DNA of 64,000 nt from Candidatus Bathyarchaeota archaeon (GCA_963775685.1 CAVZJV010000014.1:448001-512000); one strand, 5' to 3'; shown: positions 8,818 to 21,904, numbered from the stretch's first letter. Notes: a model not told the origin generated them from the letters alone. Numbers and translations: made by a program.

Positions 8818-9156
8818 ATGAGTGCAAGAAAGAAAATACCAGTTGAGAGTAAAAAGAAAAGCACTTTTCATGATAGGCTAGATAATAAAGACAAAGCATT
8901 TGTTCTTTTCTACGCGACCTGGTGCCCATTTTCCCGGGCGTTTTTGCCAACCTTTGAGGAGTATTCAAAGAGCAATCCGGATGAGTGCTTAAGTGTTATT
9001 GTCGATGAAGAGCCTGACTTATGCGAAGAATACGGCATAGAATATTATCCAACAGTGTTAGTGTTCAAAAAAGGAAAAGTGCACAAGCGCTTAGACGCAG
9101 AGCCTTATGTAGGTTTAAGCAAAAAACAGCTTAAGGACCTTACTGAAAAACAGTAA
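8818..9156 (+). CDS. Thioredoxin-fold protein (WCPFS active site)
   Basis: FYATWCPFS, YPTVLVFKKGK. Confidence 0.8.
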   Translation: MSARKKIPVESKKKSTFHDRLDNKDKAFVLFYATWCPFSRAFLPTFEEYSKSNPDECLSVIVDEEPDLCEEYGIEYYPTVLVFKKGKVHKRLDAEPYVGLSKKQLKDLTEKQ

Positions 9157-9176: not shown

Positions 9177-10261
9177 TTGTCCCTAAATTAGGTATTGAAG
9201 TAAGTCGGTGATACAGCTTTCTCGTGTCTCCCAATTTTTTGAGCTGCTTCTCTATTGAGCACTAAACACAGAATACTACACAATGCATAGAACGTCACTT
9301 GCGCTAATTCCCTGACCTTATTGTTAGCCATGCTAAACTGCGTCTTTAGGAAACTGTTAACTGCCTCAATCAGCGGTCTCTTATGATACGCCGTCTTATC
9401 CTCTAAAGACCCATAAGTCCTAAACTTCCTATCAACCCGCAACAAACCCTCCACACCCTTACGATGATTAGCAGGATATGGAATAGTTGCCTTCTCAACA
9501 GCACACCTGAGCTTAGAATCGCTATATTGGCTATCCGCTACTACACTTCTAACTTTAGCTTTACAGTGTTTGAGAATTCCCTTGGCCTTTTCAAGTAGAG
9601 CCAGTGAATGTTTCTTTTAGTTTTGGTTTGCAGAGACAAAAACGCTTGACAGCGGCAACATGGTTTTGTGGTCGATGATAGGTGCATTTTGTAGCCCAGT
9701 GCATATGATCGACCCGATCTGCCAACTCTGGCTTGAGCATCTGAGAAGCCGATCTGGTTATCTGTTGGGTGACGTGTGCTCCAAGCCTTGATAAACGAGG
9801 CATCCAACACAACATCAACTTCGCTGCTTTGCTGAGATTTGAGCAGTTTGATTACTTTTTGATCGATTATTCTGTTGAGTTTGTCTTGGCCTACTCGTTT
9901 GCTGAATCGGCTCATTACGCTTCGGGTGTAACCTTTTTGGTTGTCTTTGATTAGGCAGAGCTTTCTAATTCTTAAATCAGTGTTTAGGATGCGTGTCATT
10001 TCTTTTAGACTACGTATCGCTTTCATTCGCATAATTAAGAATGCTCGAAATAGTCCCAGTGGGTTTCTGGGTCGTCTTCCTGGGCCGCTTGTGTGGAAGC
10101 ACTGTTTTATTAGGTTATTCGCAAAGCTTAAGTCTACGTTTTTGAAGAGGGTTTCAAGGGTCTCGTGTTCATCCTGTCTCGCAGGGATCACTTCCTTGTG
10201 TGATTGGTTCTCAATGACACGAGGCCCGTTTCTAGTTATAAGCTTTTCAATTTAGGGACAA
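9177..10261 (-). mobile_element. IS5/IS4-like DDE insertion sequence with frameshifted transposase
   Basis: 13-bp terminal IRs TTGTCCCTAAATT (9177-9189) and AATTTAGGGACAA (10249-10261); ORFs 9541-10191 (DVVLDAS, GYKMHL) and 9188-9454 (Y..R..IE..NS.LK). Confidence 0.75.
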
Positions 10262-10755: not shown

Positions 10756-11838
10756 TTGATAGGCATGAACCTGGAAGATGTCGCCAAGCTTCGGTTGATT
10801 AATCATCAGATTGCTTATTCAGCTACCAAAGAACCCGGTGAAGTTGTCGCTTCGCTTGGCGCCATGCAGGCTCAAGATTATCAAGCGGCACTCTGGGCTA
10901 TTGGTCTTCGCGCCAAAGAAGTAACTTTGCCAGAGGTGGAATCAGCGATAGCTAACAGGGCAATCGTCCGAATTTGGCTGTTACGGGGCACATTGCATTT
11001 CGTAGCACCCACTTATGTTCGTTGGATGCTAAAGCTGTTAGGACCACAAATTATTGCAAGTAGTGCTGGACGCCACCGTCAGCTGAAATTGGATGAGGCA
11101 ACTTTTAGGCGGTCCGAGGAACTATTTGTTGAAGCTCTGCAAAATGGTCAGTTGACTCGAGATGAAATGTTTAAGGTTTTGGAAAAAGGAGGTATTTCTC
11201 CTGAGGGTCAACGGGGTTACCATATTCTTTGGCGAGCAGCTCTGAAAGGGTTGATTTGTTTTGGTCCACAAAAGGGCAAGGAGCAGACTTTCGCTTTGCT
11301 CAATCAATATGTACCAAAAGGCAAGAGCATGAAACAGGACGAAGCGTTGGGTGAACTTGCGCGTTGTTATTTTTCAAGTCGGGGTCCAGCGTTGCTTGAG
11401 GATTTTGCTTGGTGGTCAGGGTTGAATCTGTCCAATGCTAAGATAGCTTTGGAAACAGCGTCTTCTCGGCTCAGGTCAGAAACAATCGAAGGGAAAAGAT
11501 ATTGGATGCCCCAAAATATGCCCGAAAATGGAAAAGAGTTGGCAACAGCGTTTCTTTTGCCAGCTTTCGATGAGTATATCCTCAGTTACAGAGACCGAAC
11601 CGTTACACTTGAACAGCCTCATTTTAAGAAGGCAGTATCAACCAACGGCATCTTCTACCCCACAATTATCTTTAATGGCAAAGTAGTGGGAACATGGAAG
11701 CGTACGTTCAAGAAAAGCAACATAGTCATTATGCTCAGCCCGTTTAAGACATTAACCCCAACACAAAGAAGTTCAATTGCTTTAGCAGCGAAACATTACA
11801 GCAGATTTATGGAAATGCCGGTAACAATCACAAAATAA
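10756..11838 (+). CDS. AlkZ-like (HTH_42) DNA glycosylase / crosslink repair protein
   Basis: AMQAQD (QxQ motif), W.LRGTLH, GPA...DFAWWSGL, LLPAFDEY, G.VVGTW. Confidence 0.85.
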   Translation: MIGMNLEDVAKLRLINHQIAYSATKEPGEVVASLGAMQAQDYQAALWAIGLRAKEVTLPEVESAIANRAIVRIWLLRGTLHFVAPTYVRWMLKLLGPQIIASSAGRHRQLKLDEATFRRSEELFVEALQNGQLTRDEMFKVLEKGGISPEGQRGYHILWRAALKGLICFGPQKGKEQTFALLNQYVPKGKSMKQDEALGELARCYFSSRGPALLEDFAWWSGLNLSNAKIALETASSRLRSETIEGKRYWMPQNMPENGKELATAFLLPAFDEYILSYRDRTVTLEQPHFKKAVSTNGIFYPTIIFNGKVVGTWKRTFKKSNIVIMLSPFKTLTPTQRSSIALAAKHYSRFMEMPVTITK

Positions 11839-12573: not shown

Positions 12574-13989
12574 ATGAGCAAAAAACAATCTAAGAAGTTT
12601 AATGTGTTTGTGAATGAAAGCCAGCTTTCCGGGCAAATGCTCCGCGAAGAGCCTGCTCAATGGATTCTTTCGCCGTTTGTCCATCTATTCAATATTGATG
12701 AATCGACGAAGTGTCTTTTCAATTCTTTAACTCTAAAGAAAGTATATTTAACCAACAAAAAGTACGAAAAGGTTTTATCAGATCTGAGTAAAGGCGAGCG
12801 CAGTAATGACGTTAAAGAATTAATTGAATTAAAATTTGTGGTGCCTCAGGGGTTTGATTCGGAAAAAGTGTTTGATGCTGTTGCATGTAGCTTGCTTAGA
12901 AAAAAAACACAAACTAATCTTGCCTACATTTTGGTGACTGACTTCTGCAATTTCAGATGCGGCTATTGCTTTATCGAAAATAATCTAAAAGGACCAAGCA
13001 TTTCAATGTCCAAGGATTTAGCAAACAAAGTCATAAACATTCTAATCAACGAAGCAAAACAGGTCCCAGAATTAAGGGTCACATTTTATGGGGGAGAGCC
13101 GTTTAGCAATAGCGAAATTGTTTTCTACATTATTGAGAAGCTTGAAGAAGCATCTAAGAAATTCTTGTTTTCCTGCGTAACAAATGGAAGCCTAATAACC
13201 GAAGATATAGCTAAAAAACTCAAACAACACAACGTTTCCGTAGGATTATCACTAGACGGATGGGCCAACATTGACAAAAACCGCGTTTTCACAGATGGAA
13301 AAGAAACCTTTTACCAAGCTCTCAAAGCCTTAGCTATTCTGAAAGAAGCAGGCGTAAACACAGGAATATCATGCACAATCACAAAACAAAACTATATGCA
13401 CGCAGAAGAAATAGTAGAATTTATCCAGAAACTGGGAGTTAGAACCATAGGCTTCAACTTGTTGACCAGACTTAAAGAGGCAAGCAAATTTGAGGTGCCT
13501 GATCCAAAACAACTCGCTCATCATCTTTTTGGAGCTTACTTAAAAGCAAAAGAATTGCACATGTTTGAAGATCGTATAGATAATCGGCGAGCAAGTTATT
13601 TTTTCAAAGAAATACTTCATTTGTACGATTGCCCAGCGTTCGGTCAACTATTATTTTTTTCGCCATCTGGAACAGTAGGACCTTGCCATGCGTTCTATCC
13701 GTCGGGGAAATATCAAATTCCAATTAAAGAGAATTTGAAAATTCAAGAAGAACCATTATTTCATAAATGGCTGGAAATAGGCACGCTAAAAAATAAAGAC
13801 TGCATGCGATGTGCTGCGATTGGAATTTGCGGCGGGGGCTGTGCTTACGATATCTATGTTAAGACTGGGCAACTTGGCATAAAAGAAGACTACTTCTGTA
13901 CTTTTCAAAATGAAATACTAAAGCTGCTAATTTCATACAATTTCCTGCTGCAATCTCAAAAAAACCAAATTGCTAAAACCAAAAGTTGA
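12574..13989 (+). CDS. Radical SAM/SPASM peptide maturase with N-terminal RRE-like domain
   Basis: CNFRCGYC, FYGGEP, TNG, SLDG; SPASM Cys CPAF..PCH...CMRC..IGICGGGC..C; N-terminal LFNSLT...ELIELKFVV segment resembles an RRE. Confidence 0.9.
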   Translation: MSKKQSKKFNVFVNESQLSGQMLREEPAQWILSPFVHLFNIDESTKCLFNSLTLKKVYLTNKKYEKVLSDLSKGERSNDVKELIELKFVVPQGFDSEKVFDAVACSLLRKKTQTNLAYILVTDFCNFRCGYCFIENNLKGPSISMSKDLANKVINILINEAKQVPELRVTFYGGEPFSNSEIVFYIIEKLEEASKKFLFSCVTNGSLITEDIAKKLKQHNVSVGLSLDGWANIDKNRVFTDGKETFYQALKALAILKEAGVNTGISCTITKQNYMHAEEIVEFIQKLGVRTIGFNLLTRLKEASKFEVPDPKQLAHHLFGAYLKAKELHMFEDRIDNRRASYFFKEILHLYDCPAFGQLLFFSPSGTVGPCHAFYPSGKYQIPIKENLKIQEEPLFHKWLEIGTLKNKDCMRCAAIGICGGGCAYDIYVKTGQLGIKEDYFCTFQNEILKLLISYNFLLQSQKNQIAKTKS

Positions 13990-14077
13990 AGAATTTTTCT
14001 CCAATAATCCAGCCCCAGCTTTACTTCACAATAAACATTAAATAAAACGACTTAATAGATCAATGTAGTGATTGTTT

Positions 14078-14494
14078 TTGTCAAAAAATAAACGCATACC
14101 TAACTCTTCCTTAAAAAAATCAGCGACTGTCCCATCGGAAAAAAAATTGACGCCAGCACAAAAGAAACGTTTACGGATAACTTTGGCGAAAATGCCGACC
14201 ATTGAAAAACTGGATCCTAAAATGTATGCAAAACTGCAATCAACAATACGTGATGCTGTAGCAAAAACTTTACCGGAATATCAGCAATGGGTAAATTCTT
14301 CATTAATAGCAGCCGACGACTGCCCGGTAGAACTCTGTAGTTCATGCGGCAACGACTGCCCGGTAGAACTCTGTAGTTCATGCGGCAACGACTGCCCCAC
14401 GCCAACTAAAAACATTGATGACATTGTCGTAAAAGCTGTCAACGAAGCTATGATGGGAGCAATTCGCCAGGCTATGAAAAAGCAGTTCAAATAA
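14078..14494 (+). CDS. Putative RiPP precursor 1 (leader, Cys-rich repeat core, follower)
   Basis: Core DDCPVELCSSCGNDCPVELCSSCGNDCPTP between helical segments; lies between two radical SAM genes; TTG 14078 aligns with starts of paralogues. Confidence 0.75.
   Translation: MSKNKRIPNSSLKKSATVPSEKKLTPAQKKRLRITLAKMPTIEKLDPKMYAKLQSTIRDAVAKTLPEYQQWVNSSLIAADDCPVELCSSCGNDCPVELCSSCGNDCPTPTKNIDDIVVKAVNEAMMGAIRQAMKKQFK
14316..14397 (+). repeat. Perfect in-frame 36-bp tandem repeat (2 units plus 10 bp)
   Basis: acgactgcccggtagaactctgtagttcatgcggca at 14316-14351 and 14352-14387, partial unit to 14397. Confidence 0.95.
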
Positions 14495-14611
14495 GAAGCT
14501 GCTTTGGGTTCAGAAACCGAACGCCATCAACTGAAAAACAGTTCGCTTATTTACACCATAAAGGTAGTAGTTACCATAAAACCAATGCCTAAGAAGGTTA
14601 GATGATTTAAA

Positions 14612-16201
14612 TTGCCTGTTTTTCTTTGCATTCCGCCAGTTTCTTCTTTAATTCCATATCCAGCAATTCCATACTTAACAAGCAGCCTGAGAGCAAATAA
14701 CCAAAAGGTAAACATATTTGATCTGAACATAAAGGCTTTCAACCTAACTCTTTTCTATCAGAGAATAGATATTAAACCCAGAGAAATTCTAAGGATAAGT
14801 AACAACACGAAAAAGGCAAAATCGAAAAGAGTTCCTAAGGCAGAGATTTACTCGACCATGCGAGAAAGCCAAACAATTTTTGAAGAAATAATGTTACAAG
14901 AGGCTTATGATAAATTAGGCTATAATGTCTCAGACTTGATGTTCAAAGATATTATCAGCGAAGAATCAAAGCAGGCAACGTTGTCGGATGTCTGGAAAAT
15001 TTGTAATGCTTGGTTTCTAGAAGTTGCCCACGATTCCAAACGGCAAAATATAGTGGGATTTCATGTAATAAGTCGTACTGGTTTGATGTGGAGCATCCTT
15101 CTGGCACGTAAATTAAAGAAAATTCAGCCCAGAATTTTGACAGCTTTGGGCGGTCCAGCATTCCTCTCAGTGCAAGAAGTTCTGTCCGTCAATTCAGAAA
15201 TTGACGTAATAGTTCGAGGGGAGGGCGAGGTCACGATTTCTGAGATAGCTAATTCTTATGACGGTAGTTTGGAATCAATAAAGGGAATCGATGGAATTTC
15301 CTACAGAACTGAAAAAAACGGAATTGTTTCCAATGCTGATCGACAATTGATGAAGTCTCTTGATGCTTTGCCTTTTCCCAATTACGATGATTTACCATTA
15401 CATGAATATCCTCAGAATAAGTTTGGGATGCCTGTAATGCCGGTTGTCGGCTCTAGAGGCTGTATTGGAGACTGTGTTTTTTGTGTTGAAAAACGTTTAT
15501 GGGGAAACACGTATCGGATGCGGTCACCAGAAAACATCGTATCGGAAATCAAGAATATTAAAGAAAAACATGGAACTTCCATCATTCGATTCAATGACAG
15601 CTTGATTAATTGTAATATCAAATCGCTAGAAAAACTCTGCGATTTATTGATTGAAGAGAAGGTTGGAATGCAGTGGTCGAGCAACTCCAGAATTCGTCCT
15701 GAAATGAACAACAAACTGCTTAGGAAAATGCGACAAGCGGGTTGTATGGGCTTGTGGTTTGGCATAGAATCTGGGTCCCAGAGAATTCTGCGCAAAATGA
15801 AAAAAGGGATTGATTTGGAAACTGCTAAAAACGTGCTCCGCGATACTGCAAAAAATGGCATCCGAGTTCAGATATTTATGATAGTAGATTTTCCAGGAGA
15901 AACTCAGAGAGATTTTAACGAGTCTGTTGCTTTCTTAGAGCAAAACCACCAATTTATTGACCAAGTCAGCGTTTCACGTTTTGGAGTCTTGCCTGATTCA
16001 GAAGTTTCTCATAACCCCCAAAAATATGGAATTGAGCTGATCAAAGGAAAAACAGGGGCCACTTACAGTTATTTGTATTCGCCCTTGCCCAATAGCTACC
16101 GATTTGAAAATCTACGTTCGGTTTGGAACCGCTTAAGCATGGAAAAAACATCAGGCTCAAAAAGAAATTATCTTCCAAAAATAATTGTTCCATATTACTA
16201 A
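14612..16201 (+). CDS. Cobalamin-binding radical SAM protein (class B methyltransferase-like)
   Basis: LGGP, GEGE (B12-binding domain); SRGCIGDCVFC; GIESGSQRIL; PGET. Confidence 0.9.
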   Translation: MPVFLCIPPVSSLIPYPAIPYLTSSLRANNQKVNIFDLNIKAFNLTLFYQRIDIKPREILRISNNTKKAKSKRVPKAEIYSTMRESQTIFEEIMLQEAYDKLGYNVSDLMFKDIISEESKQATLSDVWKICNAWFLEVAHDSKRQNIVGFHVISRTGLMWSILLARKLKKIQPRILTALGGPAFLSVQEVLSVNSEIDVIVRGEGEVTISEIANSYDGSLESIKGIDGISYRTEKNGIVSNADRQLMKSLDALPFPNYDDLPLHEYPQNKFGMPVMPVVGSRGCIGDCVFCVEKRLWGNTYRMRSPENIVSEIKNIKEKHGTSIIRFNDSLINCNIKSLEKLCDLLIEEKVGMQWSSNSRIRPEMNNKLLRKMRQAGCMGLWFGIESGSQRILRKMKKGIDLETAKNVLRDTAKNGIRVQIFMIVDFPGETQRDFNESVAFLEQNHQFIDQVSVSRFGVLPDSEVSHNPQKYGIELIKGKTGATYSYLYSPLPNSYRFENLRSVWNRLSMEKTSGSKRNYLPKIIVPYY

Positions 16202-16300
16202 GAGTTTACTTTCACGAAAACGTCTCCTAGCTTAGTCTTAATGTTAATCACCAACCATAATTATTATCTTGAGAGAGCATAAAGAGAGCAGTGATTGTTT

Positions 16301-16695
16301 TTGTCAAAAAATAAATCTGCACCTATCTATTCCACAAAAAACCTGACTCCAGCACAAAAGAAACGTTTAGAGAAAACTTTGGTAAAAATGCCAACTATTG
16401 AAAAACTGGATCCTGCAGTTTATGCAAAGCTGCACTCATCGATACGTGATGCCGTGGCGAAAACTTGCCGAAATATGAGAAGTGGGTAAATTCTTCATTG
16501 GTAGCAGCCGATGATTGCCCCCCGCCAACACCTGTATGTAGTTCTTGTAGCAACGATTGCCCCACGCAGCTTTGTAGTTCATGCGGTAACGAATGCCCAA
16601 CTCCAAATAGAAAACTGGACGATATGGTTGTTAATGCTGTCAACGAAGCTATGATGGGCGCAATTCGTCAAGCTTTGAAAGAGCAGTTCAAATAA
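16301..16695 (+). pseudogene. Putative RiPP precursor 2, split by a 1-nt deletion at ~16465
   Basis: ORFs 16295-16489 and 16465-16695 join into a paralogue of precursor 1; core DDCPPPTPVCSSCSNDCPTQLCSSCGNECPTP. Confidence 0.75.
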
Positions 16696-16878
16696 GAAGC
16701 AGCTTTACGGTCAGAAACCGACCGCCATCAACTGAAAAACAGCTCTCGCCCATTTACACAACAAAGGTGTAGTGGCCACTATTTTTCTTTGCATTCCGCC
16801 AGTTTCTTCTTCAGTTCCATATCCTGCAAAAACCATAAATATTATCTTGGGAGATCATAAATAGAGCAGCGATTATTT

Positions 16879-17982
16879 TTGCCAAAAAATAAACCAGCAA
16901 CCAAACCCCTCTCTAAAAGACCTACAAAAGCCAAAAAACAAAATCAACGCCTAAACGCACCTTCGGAAAAACTTCCATATTTTGAAAAGTTAGATCCAGA
17001 AATTTATGCAAAACTGCAATCAACTGTCCGTGAAGTCATTGAAAAAACGTTGCCCGAGTACAAAGAATGGCTAAATTCCGCATTTGGCGAAAAAATCATA
17101 GGTAACGATTCTTCAAATGGTTCCCTGCAAAACATCGACAAGTTAGTGGTTTCGGCTGTTAACAATTTAATGGCAACTGCATTGGGTAAAGCTTTGAAGG
17201 AATGTGATGAGCAGCAAGGGACTATGGAAAAATGGTTTAAAATGAAATTTTATGATGACGTTTCTGACATTAGACCTGAAAGCAGAGCATATTACAAATA
17301 TTGTGTAGAAAAGTTCGTTACCGAATTTTTTACCGGACAAAAAATATTTGAAAAGAAAATCCTCGATTTTGGTTGTGGACCGGGATACTTTTCCAAGATT
17401 TTAGCCCAACGCGGAGCACTTATAACTGGAATTGACAGAAGTTTATTTCTGATTTCGAAAGCAAATGAACTTAAGCAAAGACTATGGCTTGAAAATGTAG
17501 AGTTTTTGCATGGGGATTTTCTTGATTTTGCAAAAAATATGCCCTCGGAAAAGTTTGACTATATTGTCGCGATAGATACGATTGTGAGTTTTGACTATTG
17601 CAGACAAACGCATAATCATAAGGATTTCACTCAGGCTTTAAGCGAAATTAGAAGAGTTATGAAAGACGAGGGTCGATTTTTTATTATTGAAGCGCATCCG
17701 TTTTTTGGTCAACTTGCGAAAGGCATAACTTCCTCAAGCAAAGGACGCTTTCATGGACGTTTACCTAATTACAAAATAGAGTACAATGCTAAAGACAATC
17801 CGCACCATTGGTTTACCCTTGATGAAATGACCCGTGCTCTTAGCGAGAATGGCTTGGCTATTTGTAGGATTTATGAGCCTGATCCAAGTGTTGAATTGGA
17901 AAAAGAAAACCCTCACTTATACAAATTTTATCTGAAGTATCCACATTTAATTGTGTATGAAATATGCAAAGCGAGAACCTAA
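16879..17982 (+). CDS. Class I SAM-dependent methyltransferase with N-terminal precursor-like scaffold domain
   Basis: ILDFGCGPG, GID.S, FDYIV motifs; first ~110 aa align with precursor leader and follower but lack the Cys core. Confidence 0.85.
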   Translation: MPKNKPATKPLSKRPTKAKKQNQRLNAPSEKLPYFEKLDPEIYAKLQSTVREVIEKTLPEYKEWLNSAFGEKIIGNDSSNGSLQNIDKLVVSAVNNLMATALGKALKECDEQQGTMEKWFKMKFYDDVSDIRPESRAYYKYCVEKFVTEFFTGQKIFEKKILDFGCGPGYFSKILAQRGALITGIDRSLFLISKANELKQRLWLENVEFLHGDFLDFAKNMPSEKFDYIVAIDTIVSFDYCRQTHNHKDFTQALSEIRRVMKDEGRFFIIEAHPFFGQLAKGITSSSKGRFHGRLPNYKIEYNAKDNPHHWFTLDEMTRALSENGLAICRIYEPDPSVELEKENPHLYKFYLKYPHLIVYEICKART

Positions 17983-19111: not shown

Positions 19112-20742
19112 CAGACTGTGTGAAAAGTCTCTTTCTATGCCTAGCTCCATTTACCGTTAAGCTTAAAGCTAGCTTCAGAACAACTGAAAAGCCATGAGTG
19201 AACATGTAAACGGAACCCACAGAGATCAAACAGTCCTTTTTCCCAACACCATCGACCAGTACGTAGACAAAGAAAACCCCGTCAGGTTCATCGACGCCTT
19301 CATCGACAGCCTAAACCTGGAAAAGCTTGGATTCAAACACTCCATTCCAGCGGAAACCGGAAGACCATCTTACAATCCCTCAGATTTACTCAAACTCTAT
19401 CTTTACGGATACCTCAACCAGGTGAGATCATGTCGCAAACTCGAGAAAGAATGCCACCGCAACGTCGAGGTCATGTGGCTCATGAAGAAACTTGCTCCCG
19501 ATTTCAAGACTATTGCTGACTTCAGAAAAAACAATGTGGACTGCATCAAAGGTGTATTCAAAGAATTTGTTTATCTCTGCAGGAACTTGGATCTTTATGG
19601 TGCTCAACTGATAGCGATTGATGGCACCAAATTCAAAGCCGTCAATTCCAAAAGCAATAATCTTAACGAGAAAACGGTCGCTTTGAAGCTCAAACAAACA
19701 GAAGAAAAGATAGCAGAGTACCTAAAAGAAATGGACCAAAACGATACGACCGATTCAGCAGAAGATGAAAATGTCAATGTCGATGAGCCCAACGAGAAAA
19801 TATGCAAACTTGAAGAAGAAAAGCAACGATACGAGCAGATTCAAGATCAAATGAAAGCAACAGGCCAGAAAGAAGTTTCACTTGTTGATCCAGATAGCCG
19901 TTTGATGCGGGTAGACAGTCAAAGGCTTGAAGTCTGCTACAACATTCAGACATCCGTGGATGCGAAGCAGCATTTAATCGTGGATTACGATGTTATCAAT
20001 AATTCAACTGACCATCACCAACTAGCGACGGACGCTAAGGCTGCAAAACAGGTACTTGGCGTTGATCAGCTCGAAGTTTTGAGTGACAAAGGCTTCTACG
20101 TTGCAAATGACCTCATTGAATGTGAAGAAGCTGGGATAACAGTGTTCATGCCGATTCCAGCTTTCAATCCGACTAAGAAGGTGGGTGTTCCAGAGCCTGA
20201 GTTTGGCTCTGAACGGTTTATCTTCAATGATCTGAAAGACGTTTACGTTTGCCCCGTTGGAAAGGAACTGGGATTTTGGAAGGGCAGTTTCAAGAGTAAA
20301 CCTGAAAATGGCAAGCGTTATAGAACAGTTTCTTGTGCTGATTGTAATTCTAGAAGTAGGTGCACTCGTAATAAGCGTGGCAGGATAATGGTGAGATGGG
20401 AGTATCAGGGTGCGGTTGATAGGCTCAGAGCACTGCTGATGAGTTCTGACGGAAAAGAGAAGGTGCGCTTGAGGAGGATTTTGGCAGAGCATCCTTTTGG
20501 AACCATGAAGCGGGCATTCAATCAGGATTATTTGCTCTTGAAGGGTCTTATAAAAGTCAAAGGAGAAGTAGGATTCACGATGCTAGCTTACAACATGAGA
20601 AGAGTCATCAATATTCTGGGAGTTGGTACGCTAATGGGTTTGATGAAGGCGTAAATAGAGAAAATAAGTGAACAATAATCCCAGACAAGAGCTTGAGTGC
20701 CAAATATTCTTAGGCTTTAACTGTAAGTTTTGACACAGTCTG
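19112..20742 (+). mobile_element. IS1182-family insertion sequence, copy 2
   Basis: IRs cagactgtgtgaaaagt (19112) and agttttgacacagtctg (ends 20742); perfect TSD CATT at 19108-19111 and 20743-20746. Confidence 0.92.
19194..20654 (+). CDS. IS1182-family DDE transposase
   Basis: Close paralogue of 5613-7073, intact 486 aa. Confidence 0.92.
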   Translation: MSEHVNGTHRDQTVLFPNTIDQYVDKENPVRFIDAFIDSLNLEKLGFKHSIPAETGRPSYNPSDLLKLYLYGYLNQVRSCRKLEKECHRNVEVMWLMKKLAPDFKTIADFRKNNVDCIKGVFKEFVYLCRNLDLYGAQLIAIDGTKFKAVNSKSNNLNEKTVALKLKQTEEKIAEYLKEMDQNDTTDSAEDENVNVDEPNEKICKLEEEKQRYEQIQDQMKATGQKEVSLVDPDSRLMRVDSQRLEVCYNIQTSVDAKQHLIVDYDVINNSTDHHQLATDAKAAKQVLGVDQLEVLSDKGFYVANDLIECEEAGITVFMPIPAFNPTKKVGVPEPEFGSERFIFNDLKDVYVCPVGKELGFWKGSFKSKPENGKRYRTVSCADCNSRSRCTRNKRGRIMVRWEYQGAVDRLRALLMSSDGKEKVRLRRILAEHPFGTMKRAFNQDYLLLKGLIKVKGEVGFTMLAYNMRRVINILGVGTLMGLMKA

Positions 20743-20851: not shown

Positions 20852-21904
20852 TCAAGACATAGGACCGGAAGTATTCAGGTTCAGATACTTGGAAGCTAAT
20901 CGCCTCATTGTTTCAAAATGCAGACTAATAGCAACCTTGCCTTTATCGGTTATTTGTATGAAGGTGCGGGGTCCTCCTGCCGTTTTGAAGCCTTTACGTA
21001 CGGTTATGTAGCTAGCATCTGATAGAGCATTGACGCTGTAATTCAAAGAGCTTTTTGAAACTTGAACTACCATCAGGAGGTCTGTAAAAGTGATTTGTTC
21101 AACTCCCAAAAGAGCAAGCATAATTCCAACCCTCGTAAAACTGGATAAAACACCTCCTGAAGCAAATTCGGAAAGACTAACATCATCCTGTTTTCTTGAG
21201 GGTAAGGGGTCTGTGCTGAAGCTGTCCTTTGCGCTCAAGACTTGCACGAGCTCTTGTGGAGCTTCAAACGACGATTTGATGCCAGCCAATAGAAACACAA
21301 GAATTAGGGAAACCAAATAGGTCGTTGTATTTATTTCCTGGAAAAAAGAAAGCATCAGCAACGTTGCAGGAAAAACTGCGACCAGCCAATCTTCTATGCG
21401 CCAAGGAAGAACACTGTCCGCGGACTGTTTTGAAAAAACAAGAAAGTAATAGAATAGTACATAACCAACAAATGCAATCAGCACTACGGAGCCAAGAACT
21501 GCACTGCTCGTTACTTCAAATATTGCGGCAGCAACTAAAGGCAAAAGAACAAGAGCAGTTCTTGCACTCTCCAAAAGCCTATTTAATCTGTGCCTATGTT
21601 TTTCCTGTTTTTGTTCAAAAAGATCCATGACAAGCCGCATTTGATAGAAGCGGTTCATTCCTGCCAAACGAGAAAAAAACAAAATCCCCAAAACCAATAG
21701 ACCTACAGAAATTAGTATAGCATACAAGGGCGCGGATAAAGAAACTAAAACGCCCACAAGAATCGGCACCATCGAAAGCAGGGCATAATAAACTCCAATT
21801 CCTCGTCTGGCTCTAAACCTAAATATTGATAGTGCAATATTTTTCGGCTTCTGCTCTTCCTCTTCTAGTAACTTTGCAATGCTATTCCCACTCGCCTTAG
21901 TCAT
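20852..21904 (-). CDS. Membrane-bound transcriptional regulator (multi-TM plus C-terminal winged HTH)
   Basis: About 6 hydrophobic segments, then RVGIMLAL...TFTDL....VSKSSLNYSVNAL...PRTFIQITDKG (ArsR/MarR-like wHTH). Confidence 0.75.
   Translation of the reverse strand: MTKASGNSIAKLLEEEEQKPKNIALSIFRFRARRGIGVYYALLSMVPILVGVLVSLSAPLYAILISVGLLVLGILFFSRLAGMNRFYQMRLVMDLFEQKQEKHRHRLNRLLESARTALVLLPLVAAAIFEVTSSAVLGSVVLIAFVGYVLFYYFLVFSKQSADSVLPWRIEDWLVAVFPATLLMLSFFQEINTTTYLVSLILVFLLAGIKSSFEAPQELVQVLSAKDSFSTDPLPSRKQDDVSLSEFASGGVLSSFTRVGIMLALLGVEQITFTDLLMVVQVSKSSLNYSVNALSDASYITVRKGFKTAGGPRTFIQITDKGKVAISLHFETMRRLASKYLNLNTSGPMS

Follow-up and report, generated by a model that had tools for sequence, protein, structure and literature searches.

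A 64,000-nt stretch of DNA from a Candidatus Bathyarchaeota archaeon (hereafter, the window) carries what we read, at heart, as a lineage-restricted operon for post-translational protein modification. Its product is probably an uncleaved, RiPP-like modified protein in which a loop of cysteine repeats would be cross-linked by thioethers and methylated, a chemistry that we infer solely from the families the enzymes resemble. The link of the Cys-repeat proteins to genes for a radical SAM/SPASM enzyme, a B12-type radical SAM enzyme and a methyltransferase is strong. The operon is probably a variant of the archaeal cross-linking of whole proteins, which was demonstrated only recently and is akin to the bacterial cross-linking of peptide antibiotics.

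Gene content and distribution

Gene calling in the window placed five co-oriented genes on the plus strand between 12574 and 17982. The first (12574..13989) encodes a radical SAM/SPASM maturase of 471 aa. It is followed by precursor 1 (P1; 14072..14494), a protein of 140 aa and seven Cys with a TTG start, or of 138 aa from a possible alternative TTG at 14078. Next come a 529-aa B12-binding-type radical SAM enzyme, a putative C-methyltransferase (14612..16201), precursor 2 (P2) and a class-I methyltransferase of 367 aa (16879..17982). An earlier note on this DNA had listed five co-oriented genes; all are present, but the second precursor is split instead of forming an intact ORF.

That note had named the gene neighborhoods of homologues as a check on its proposal, and most homologues do have radical SAM genes nearby. 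Across 29 foreign loci from 21 assemblies, the SPASM gene lies directly upstream of the precursor in 25; 20 of the loci have the B12 radical SAM gene, and 22 the methyltransferase in its fused form. The remaining four foreign loci lack an intact SPASM gene next to the precursor, as do two of the four precursor loci in the window's own genome. Of 120 genomes of the genus, the window's own among them, 22 carry both the precursor and the SPASM orthologue and the other 98 carry neither, a perfect co-occurrence among same-genus genomes, which are non-independent observations. The precursor was found in 0 of 286 sampled genomes outside the genus. The archaea that carry the operon are a small set of Bathyarchaeia from peat and soil.

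A cysteine-repeat precursor family

P1, defined by its ORF call, a family alignment and an AlphaFold2 (AF2) model, has a basic tail and leader helices ahead of a 7-Cys core (residues 82-113), and a follower helix behind it. The model places helices at residues 28-40, 49-81 and 114-138 and leaves the core disordered (pLDDT < 50), at a low overall confidence (mean pLDDT 58), so that we took from it the helix positions only. Homologue alignments bear out the earlier description of a Cys core in the middle of the protein between conserved flanks. The most conserved motif, P-x-I-E-K-L-D-P-x2-Y-x-K-L, lies in the leader helix region, and the follower helix is conserved as strongly as the leader. The N-terminal 40 residues might have been untranslated, but we rejected this because they are kept as protein in homologues.

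The core is built of one to five copies of a 12-aa unit, [D/Q]-C-P-x3-C-S-[S/A]-C-x-N, and the loop is closed by [D/Q]-C-P-T-P ahead of the follower helix. Among 253 units in the 120 homologues listed, the C, P, C and C positions are invariant, S is kept in 236 and N in 245; this pattern is not due to chance. In sub-families of the precursor, the flanks are kept and the core motif is changed. The units of P1 are identical at the DNA level, forming a perfect 36-nt tandem repeat of 2.3 copies at 14316..14397 (Tandem Repeats Finder, TRF; 100% matches, score 164).

The family is real, though very small: a profile search recovered 18 representatives of it among 1.84 billion. It was seen here in Bathyarchaeia only. 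The earlier note had not recognized this family, and it indeed matches none that is known: the precursor had no Pfam or NCBIfam match at E ≤ 0.01, Fer4, metallothionein and other metal-binding families included, a Protein Atlas look-up of P1 gave no usable match, and the family alignment, searched as a profile against the PDB, returned nothing at E ≤ 0.5 (chance-level rows at E 0.57 and 0.74). Pfam searches at relaxed thresholds with the N-terminal domains of the SPASM enzyme and the methyltransferase, and with paralogous precursors, returned sub-threshold noise only.

These searches bear on whether the precursors are ordinary metal- or iron-sulfur-binding proteins with free Cys, used by the radical SAM enzymes as cluster or electron donors or as chaperones and not as substrates. 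The spacing C-x4-C-x2-C-x3-C-P does resemble the end part of the ferredoxin motif, 95 of the 120 listed proteins have a Cys count of 3n+1 (4, 7 or 10), and a metal-related role was also suggested for the archaeal Cys-repeat protein CrpA (PMC13692751). We nevertheless hold this to be very improbable. Apart from the empty family and structure searches, a variable number of one to five units misfits a fixed cluster site, the partner enzyme falls in the peptide-maturase branch of SPASM proteins, and a methyltransferase bearing a copy of the scaffold would be hard to explain. A ferredoxin site proper was rejected, its spacing being C-x2-C-x2-C-x3-C-P and no Fer4 match being found.

Protein or released peptide

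We clustered 1295 ORFs of at least 70 aa from 33 loci, reaching about 10 kb to each side, and found no further conserved neighbor family and therefore no protease or transporter in the set. This agrees, as do the gene calls, with the earlier remark that no protease is visible in the locus; a gene for a protease or an exporter may lie at another place in the genome. The earlier note had left the product as a peptide or a modified protein. Given that the set has no protease or exporter and that the follower is conserved, we favor the modified protein over a released peptide.

In a classical secreted RiPP, a protease from another locus would remove both leader and follower, and the product would be exported, as an antimicrobial or signal, in the form of a small cross-linked, methylated Cys-rich peptide or of one such peptide per repeat. 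A set of SPASM, B12 radical SAM and methyltransferase enzymes is typical of RiPP clusters, the repeat number, and between sub-families the motif, varies while the flanks stay, and the system is patchy and accessory, as its presence in 22 of 120 genomes of one genus shows. We judge this outcome quite unlikely all the same, since in the 33 loci the 10 kb on either side contain no conserved protease or transporter and the follower helix, besides being as conserved as the leader, is kept in the methyltransferase N-terminal domain. In addition, the flanks, at about 105 aa in all, are long for a leader, and within the main sub-family the core is highly conserved, unlike hypervariable bioactive cores.

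The SPASM maturase and its predicted chemistry

The gene at 12574 had been identified in the earlier note as radical SAM/SPASM, and this assignment held: the radical SAM domain PF04055 covers residues 119-284 (3.1e-22), peptide-maturase models align end to end, and the cluster-type cysteines are conserved. The CxxxCxxC motif corresponds to C125/C129/C132. The SPASM consensus comprises C..G-x4-C, C-x2-C-x5-C-x3-C and a final C, and the seven Cys of the C-terminal region (353, 371, 410, 413, 419, 423 and 442) reproduce it as C353, G-x4-C371, C410-x2-C413-x5-C419-x3-C423 and C442. All ten Cys are invariant across 21 orthologues.

A domain of about 115 aa precedes the radical SAM core; the earlier note had called it a RiPP recognition element (RRE), and we treat it as a candidate RRE. 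Residues 1-120 had no PqqD-type Pfam match at E ≤ 5, and the FibroRumin, CefB, CcpM and QhpD models align from residue 33-35, ahead of the core. The AF2 model, made from a 21-row alignment, had a mean pLDDT of 49.5 (< 50 for residues 1-61), with the N-terminus and the SPASM region unmodelled, and was too poor to serve for comparing folds or for judging an RRE.

Residues 33-453 align with the NCBIfam models of several peptide maturases, namely FibroRumin, PapB, CefB, QhpD and the SCIFF maturase. The best match is FibroRumin (2.2e-53, 181.7 bits against a cut-off of 400), and PapB (7.1e-44, 150.4 bits, cut-off 340), CefB (121.5 bits, cut-off 600), QhpD (5.1e-33, residues 34-445, 114 bits, cut-off 453) and the SCIFF maturase (109.7 bits, cut-off 425) also stay under their thresholds. 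In the PDB, the CteB structure 5wgg matches at 1.8e-26. No named NCBIfam maturase family reached its curated cut-off and all scores were far below, so function is not transferable by family membership.

Thioether formation is the chemistry we predict, and we regard it as unlikely that the SPASM enzyme instead modifies the Cys repeats by another radical SAM reaction, be it formylglycine formation as in anaerobic sulfatase maturases (anSMEs) or C-C cross-linking. For such a reaction speak matches of similar strength to an anaerobic sulfatase maturase (8.6e-31) and to the cyclophane formers AmcB, YhhB and GrrM, PDB matches to anSME structures at 7.8e-16, and the fact that no family cut-off was reached. 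Yet the two best full-length matches, FibroRumin and PapB, are maturases of Cys-rich peptides; CefB, SCIFF and CcpM match as well, although a nif11-type maturase and QhpD score equal or better. The substrate also speaks against some of these reactions, as its Cys units have no aromatic residues of the sort used by cyclophane formers and, as read from the sequence, do not contain C-x-P-x-R, the sulfatase motif.

The putative methylating enzymes

The B12 enzyme matches PF04055 at 1.4e-18, and PF02310 scores 27.8 bits, under its cut-off of 32.1. Its best match is TIGR03975, the "RiPP maturation radical SAM C-methyltransferase" sub-family, which aligns over residues 5-490 (4.7e-47; 160.8 bits against a cut-off of 281.85), and an ApyD-type model, also below its cut-off, follows at 7.2e-47. 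PDB matches include 9ccb (2.5e-19) and TokK (1.4e-6). These B12 C-methyltransferases of RiPP pathways resemble the 529-aa enzyme in sequence and in RiPP-like context, but the score falls below the TIGR03975 cut-off and the B12 gene is accessory here. It is absent from five of the 25 foreign loci that have the SPASM gene, which points to an accessory tailoring step.

The last gene had been called a methyltransferase, and residues encoded by 17224..17982 do form a class-I SAM methyltransferase domain (PF13847, 4.4e-22; PF08241, 1.1e-16; PDB 1ve3, 6.8e-12); what had been missed is the precursor homology at its N-terminus. Residues 1-115 (16879..17223) are a copy of the precursor leader and follower, about 110 aa of the scaffold, with a short linker in place of the Cys core. 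P1 matches this region at 41% identity (tblastn, E 5.6e-21), the domain is conserved in 16 orthologues, and some copies retain a single Cys in an N-D-C-S-N-G remnant.

Complex prediction weakly suggests that this domain pairs with P1. The pair scored 0.44 (best of three controls, 0.00), within a range up to 0.60 in which only 7 of 80 solved complexes passed, along with both of the mismatched pairs that passed; over the whole range, 58 of the 80 solved complexes reached the mark, as did 2 of 110 mismatched pairs. Runs agreed in at least 81% of contacts, with a partner pLDDT of at least 59.

Proposed pathway

From these parts we infer each chemical step, the mode of docking and the fate of the product. 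The substrate would be a protein of about 138 aa with a basic disordered tail, a leader helix region, a Cys loop of one to five units and a follower helix. The SPASM enzyme would dock on the leader and process the repeats one by one, forming thioethers between the sulfur of Cys and a carbon in a residue nearby; candidate acceptors are the near-invariant Asn and the Asp or Gln that precedes each unit. The B12 radical SAM enzyme may then methylate unactivated carbons of the core. Finally, the class-I methyltransferase would methylate a heteroatom; its N-terminal domain, a decoy copy of the precursor scaffold, would recruit it to the substrate or the enzyme complex. With no protease or exporter in the set, the product most likely remains in the cell as a protein of about 15 kDa whose two helices hold a rigid cross-linked knob between them. 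As to its cellular role, metal or redox chemistry is a guess.

A bolder version, possible though we doubt it, is that scaffold display and enzyme recruitment by substrate mimicry constitute a new logic for RiPP-like pathways. The modified segment would be a loop presented between two helices of a folded protein instead of a terminal core, and the methyltransferase would locate its target through its core-less decoy of the substrate's helical scaffold, which would pair with the substrate or take its docking site on the radical SAM enzyme. The outcome would be a stable intracellular protein with a multiply thioether-bridged, methylated knob and a dedicated metal or redox role in peat-dwelling Bathyarchaeia.

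Comparison with known systems

Among known systems, the Crp system of Methanococcus voltae comes closest. There, the SPASM radical SAM enzyme CrpC installs ranthionine-type thioethers on the Cys-repeat protein CrpA, and the paralogue CrpB has its N-terminal 47 residues in common with CrpA, according to a 2026 report (PMC13692751). Because of this publication, the earlier description of a new RiPP system overstates the novelty. Both systems are archaeal, encode a SPASM enzyme beside a protein-sized Cys-repeat substrate, include a second protein that shares the substrate's N-terminal region, have no protease assigned and are seen as yielding a modified protein. They differ in that CrpA carries ten C-terminal copies of a 17-aa unit, whereas the 12-aa units here are internal between two conserved helices; that Crp is described without the B12 radical SAM enzyme and the methyltransferase present here; and that the leader-sharing protein here, unlike in Crp, is an enzyme fusion. 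We saw no sequence relation between CrpA, as reported there, and the Bathyarchaeal precursor. CrpC belongs to TIGR04463, against which the Bathyarchaeal enzyme scores 91.8 bits, under the cut-off of 525.

Ranthipeptide and SCIFF maturases (PapB, CteB and NxxcB) share the enzyme architecture, PapB and CteB being among the best matches, and their substrates likewise have repeated short Cys motifs with Asp or Asn nearby. Those substrates are short leader-core peptides, in contrast to the proteins of about 140 aa with a follower found here, and the scores lie below the cut-offs. Acceptor rules in ranthipeptides are C-x3-D and N-x-x-C, to which the spacing of the Cys unit here is an inexact fit. 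QhpC/QhpD, of the quinohemoprotein amine dehydrogenase gamma subunit, shows the arrangement proposed here, a SPASM enzyme that cross-links Cys to other residues inside a small protein that stays a protein. QhpC is a periplasmic dehydrogenase subunit with a cleaved leader and a dedicated protease; no dehydrogenase genes occur at the Bathyarchaeal locus, and the QhpD score, as given above, is under its cut-off.

A literature search found no paper describing the operon. In archaea, enzymes that cross-link whole proteins, and not just short peptides, through thioethers have been demonstrated only very recently and in a single system. The operon would add a second, unrelated substrate family with an internal core and two extra methylating enzymes, one bearing a copy of the substrate scaffold, and for the uncultured Bathyarchaeia it would be the first candidate pathway of this kind. 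Its small substrate, three enzymes and natural variation from one to five repeats make the operon well suited to asking how radical SAM maturases deal with folded or repeat substrates, which reactions the C-P-x3-C-S-x-C-x-N unit undergoes, and whether tailoring enzymes are recruited by leader mimicry.

A broken second precursor and a trace of duplication

P2 had been listed as one gene, but its ORF is not intact. Compared with P1 and with five orthologous second precursors that are intact, P2 lacks one T in a TTT run at about 16465, and this 1-nt deletion splits it into two ORFs. By ORF call and alignment, the 5' piece (16295..16489, 64 aa) holds the leader and ends prematurely after the frameshift; the 3' piece (16465..16695, 76 aa), in another frame, holds the end of the leader, the 7-Cys core and the follower. 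The frameshift may be either a real mutation or an assembly error.

Among sequencing runs, none was of the same strain (best share of words, 0.15). In contigs of relatives, from two RNA libraries and two DNA runs, the P2 stretch 16375-16736 was covered in X1 only. The other genes of the locus were covered in the RNA libraries in 29 of 30 and 26 of 30 bins, which is no proof that they are transcribed. X7, X20 and X1 show a joint from 16201 to 16829 that fits relatives without P2, as in loci L016-L018.

Alignment of the DNA at 14492-14700 with that at 16693-16900 revealed a remnant of the B12 radical SAM gene, its first ~50 nt, at 16779..16829. It sits behind a duplicated precursor 3' flank, which we take as the trace of a tandem duplication of a unit made of a precursor and the start of the B12 gene. 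In the window, the locus is flanked by genes for an AlkZ-like glycosylase and a transposase, and by an ORF without a family match.

A precursor family linked to radical SAM genes

The operon at 12574-17982 comprises five genes, all on the plus strand, and includes two precursors (P1 and P2) with a Cys-repeat core between a conserved leader and follower. A word-indexed search returned 159 proteins of the precursor family. The 120 listed were unnamed or 'hypothetical', save two with evidently spurious automatic names, and one was labelled Bathyarchaeia. In a full profile search, only 18 of 1.84 billion representatives matched at E ≤ 0.001. The family had gone unrecognised in the earlier note, and we likewise found no match in Pfam, NCBIfam, PDB or Atlas and no description in the literature.

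Among the 120 listed proteins of 159, the core unit is [D/Q]-C-P-[T/V]-[E/P/Q]-[L/V/I]-C-S-[S/A]-C-x-N, present in one to five copies and ending in [D/Q]-C-P-T-P. All 253 units of these proteins preserve C, P, C and C, with S kept in 236 and N in 245. Seven cysteines occur in 61 of the listed proteins and ten in 32. P1 (14072-14494, plus strand, 140 aa) has seven, and at the DNA level its core consists of 2.3 copies of a 36-nt unit repeated perfectly in tandem. AlphaFold2 (AF2) modeled P1 at low confidence (mean pLDDT 58), predicting helices at residues 28-40, 49-81 and 114-138 with a disordered core. The earlier description of conserved flanks around variable cores applies between sub-families, where distant members keep the flanks but have cores of C-W-S-C-G-T-G-P-T-P-A units, C-P-x-P-x-C-D-C-x2-C-P units or a dense C-x-C run. 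It does not apply within the main sub-family, whose core is also well conserved and varies mostly in copy number.

We then counted gene content by tblastn with the window's proteins at 29 related loci in 21 other assemblies. As the earlier note had anticipated, SPASM and B12 radical SAM genes accompany precursor homologues: the SPASM gene lies directly upstream of the precursor at 25 of the 29 loci and the B12 gene is present at 20. The fused methyltransferase (MT) was found at 22 loci, a second precursor between the B12 and MT genes at seven, and no enzyme gene nearby at four (L023, L027, L033 and L035). Among 120 species genomes of the genus, whole-genome searches placed the precursor family in 22, the window's own one included, and a SPASM orthologue (E ≤ 1e-60) in exactly the same 22, counts in which relatives are not independent and some genomes are incomplete. 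The precursor was absent from all 286 genomes sampled from the class outside the genus. Genomic evidence could hardly tie precursor and enzyme together more firmly.

All but one of the 29 loci carry a Bathyarchaeota label. The exception, L037, is a 10.4-kb contig binned as an acidobacterium (Candidatus Sulfotelmatobacter), with a SPASM gene 75% identical to the window's and a 174-aa precursor. Because the contig is short, mis-binning is likely, rather than a bacterial occurrence of the system. Some genomes hold two or three complete operon copies (L016, L017 and L020 in one assembly; L012 and L021 on one contig). Genomes with the system, mostly 2.4-3.5 Mb in size, also appeared to exceed most of the listed genomes of the genus that lack it.

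Enzymes and proposed chemistry

The SPASM enzyme (12574-13989, plus strand, 471 aa; PF04055, 3.1e-22) aligned nearly end to end with NCBIfam SPASM peptide maturases, including FibroRumin (2.2e-53, residues 33-453) and PapB (7.1e-44). It also matched the nif11-type maturase, CefB, QhpD and the SCIFF maturase, and all of these maturase scores were far under the curated cut-off (e.g., 181.7 versus 400). Its closest solved structure is CteB (5wgg, 1.8e-26). Cysteines 125, 129 and 132 of the CxxxCxxC motif are invariant in 21 orthologues, as are seven more in the C-terminal part, spaced in the SPASM pattern. The N-terminal RRE named in the earlier note stays putative, as no PqqD-type match was found there and the AF2 model of the enzyme was too poor to use (pLDDT 49.5). 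In the B12 enzyme (14612-16201, plus strand, 529 aa), a radical SAM domain is accompanied by a B12-binding match that falls below threshold. The enzyme's top family was TIGR03975, 'RiPP maturation radical SAM C-methyltransferase' (4.7e-47, under cut-off).

Judged by sequence, the SPASM enzyme falls in the branch of its family whose members target Cys motifs in peptides or proteins. Given this placement and the strong precursor-enzyme link, we read the operon as a putative RiPP-like protein-modification system. The SPASM enzyme would most likely form Cys-to-carbon thioethers, one unit after another, the B12 enzyme would C-methylate, and MT would methylate a heteroatom.

The methyltransferase carries the precursor scaffold

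The product of the fifth gene (16879-17982, plus strand, 367 aa) is a methyltransferase, as first described, and belongs to the class-I SAM type (PF13847, 4.4e-22), but its precursor-like N-domain had been overlooked. MT residues 1-115 are homologous to the precursor tail, leader and follower (41% identity, E 5.6e-21), with a short linker where the precursors have the Cys core. This fusion is kept in 16 orthologues, and some retain a single Cys in the linker as an N-D-C-S-N-G remnant. The most conserved motif, I/F-E-K-L-D-P-x2-Y-A-K-L, is common to precursors and MT, which suggests that they may dock on one same partner or on each other. Complex prediction lends weak support to a pairing of the MT N-domain with P1, which scored 0.44 against 0.00 for the best of three controls, with contacts agreeing at least 81% between runs and partner pLDDT of at least 59. 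Of 80 solved complexes, 58 attained the mark for such predictions, as did two of 110 mismatched pairs, but only seven of those complexes, and both of those pairs, attained it with scores ≤ 0.60.

Clustering 1295 ORFs of at least 70 aa from 33 loci revealed no other conserved neighbor, the remaining clusters being only antisense shadow ORFs or families in at most nine of the 33 loci. Hence, no protease or exporter is conserved, in keeping with the earlier observation that a protease is missing from the locus. Since both are lacking, the flanks are long and conserved, and the scaffold is reused as an MT domain, we argue that the product most likely remains a protein.

Comparison with the Crp system

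The precursor-enzyme gene linkage partly supports the earlier proposal of a RiPP system, but not its novelty, as an archaeal system of the same kind has been published. According to PMC13692751 (2026), CrpC, a SPASM enzyme of the TIGR04463 family from Methanococcus voltae, modifies the 28.8-kDa Cys-repeat protein CrpA with ranthionine-type thioethers, and CrpB, whose first 47 residues are common with CrpA, increases the extent of modification. 'Bathyarchae' does not occur in the paper's main text, and its filter, given as Cys ≥ 10% for proteins of at least 100 aa, would have left out P1 with seven Cys in 140 aa. Relative to the system as described there, the SPASM enzyme here belongs to a sub-family other than TIGR04463 (91.8 bits versus a cut-off of 525), the substrate is unrelated to CrpA, the core lies inside the protein instead of at its C-terminus, and two methylating enzymes are added. 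Unlike CrpB, the leader-sharing paralogue here is an enzyme fusion, MT.

History of the locus

The earlier note had counted the second precursor as one of five co-oriented genes. The co-oriented layout stands, but P2 falls into two plus-strand pieces, 16295-16489 and 16465-16695, since a TTT run near 16465 lacks one T relative to P1 and five intact orthologous second precursors. The same genes contain many frameshifts in related assemblies, making an assembly error plausible for P2. A search of sequencing runs turned up none containing this strain.

P2 is followed by a copy of the precursor 3' flank and then by a ~50-nt copy of the beginning of the B12 gene (16779-16829). A ~60-nt upstream segment is common to P2 (16235-16300) and MT (16815-16880), of which P1 has only the proximal part. 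These duplicated pieces indicate that the locus grew through tandem duplication of a unit combining a precursor with the 5' end of the B12 gene. In the ~60-nt segment, some 40 nt 5' of the start codon, lies a ATAAATATTAT-like box rich in A/T, which may be an archaeal promoter copied when the gene unit was duplicated.

Further loci and operon surroundings

Three additional precursor loci occur in the genome that contains the window. At L011:5920-12049 (contig C14 of G000, about 1.185-1.191 Mb), a divergent system pairs a 494-aa SPASM enzyme, 67% identical, with a 193-aa precursor of C-W-S-C-G-T-G-P-T-P-A units and a C-terminal extension. Two more 330-aa radical SAM genes and one 95-aa ORF follow downstream on the same strand, and the system has neither the B12 gene nor MT. 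A precursor of the same kind occurs in another assembly (L038). L009:10078-11414 has a 142-aa precursor with four Cys beside a degraded SPASM remnant with frameshifts, and L010:9994-10509 has a 171-aa precursor with nine Cys and no enzyme gene within 10 kb.

The operon region is rich in mobile elements. A DDE transposase (19194-20654, plus strand; PF13751, 1.2e-19, plus DUF772) lies 1.2 kb downstream, and a truncated DUF772 transposase fragment (9541-10191, minus strand) lies upstream. Genes nearby that are not conserved with the operon encode a thioredoxin (8818-9156, plus strand; 7e-15), an AlkZ-like DNA glycosylase (10756-11838, plus strand; 1.2e-61) and a multi-pass membrane protein whose C-terminal domain is of the winged-helix type (20852-21904, minus strand; HTH_34, 2e-12).
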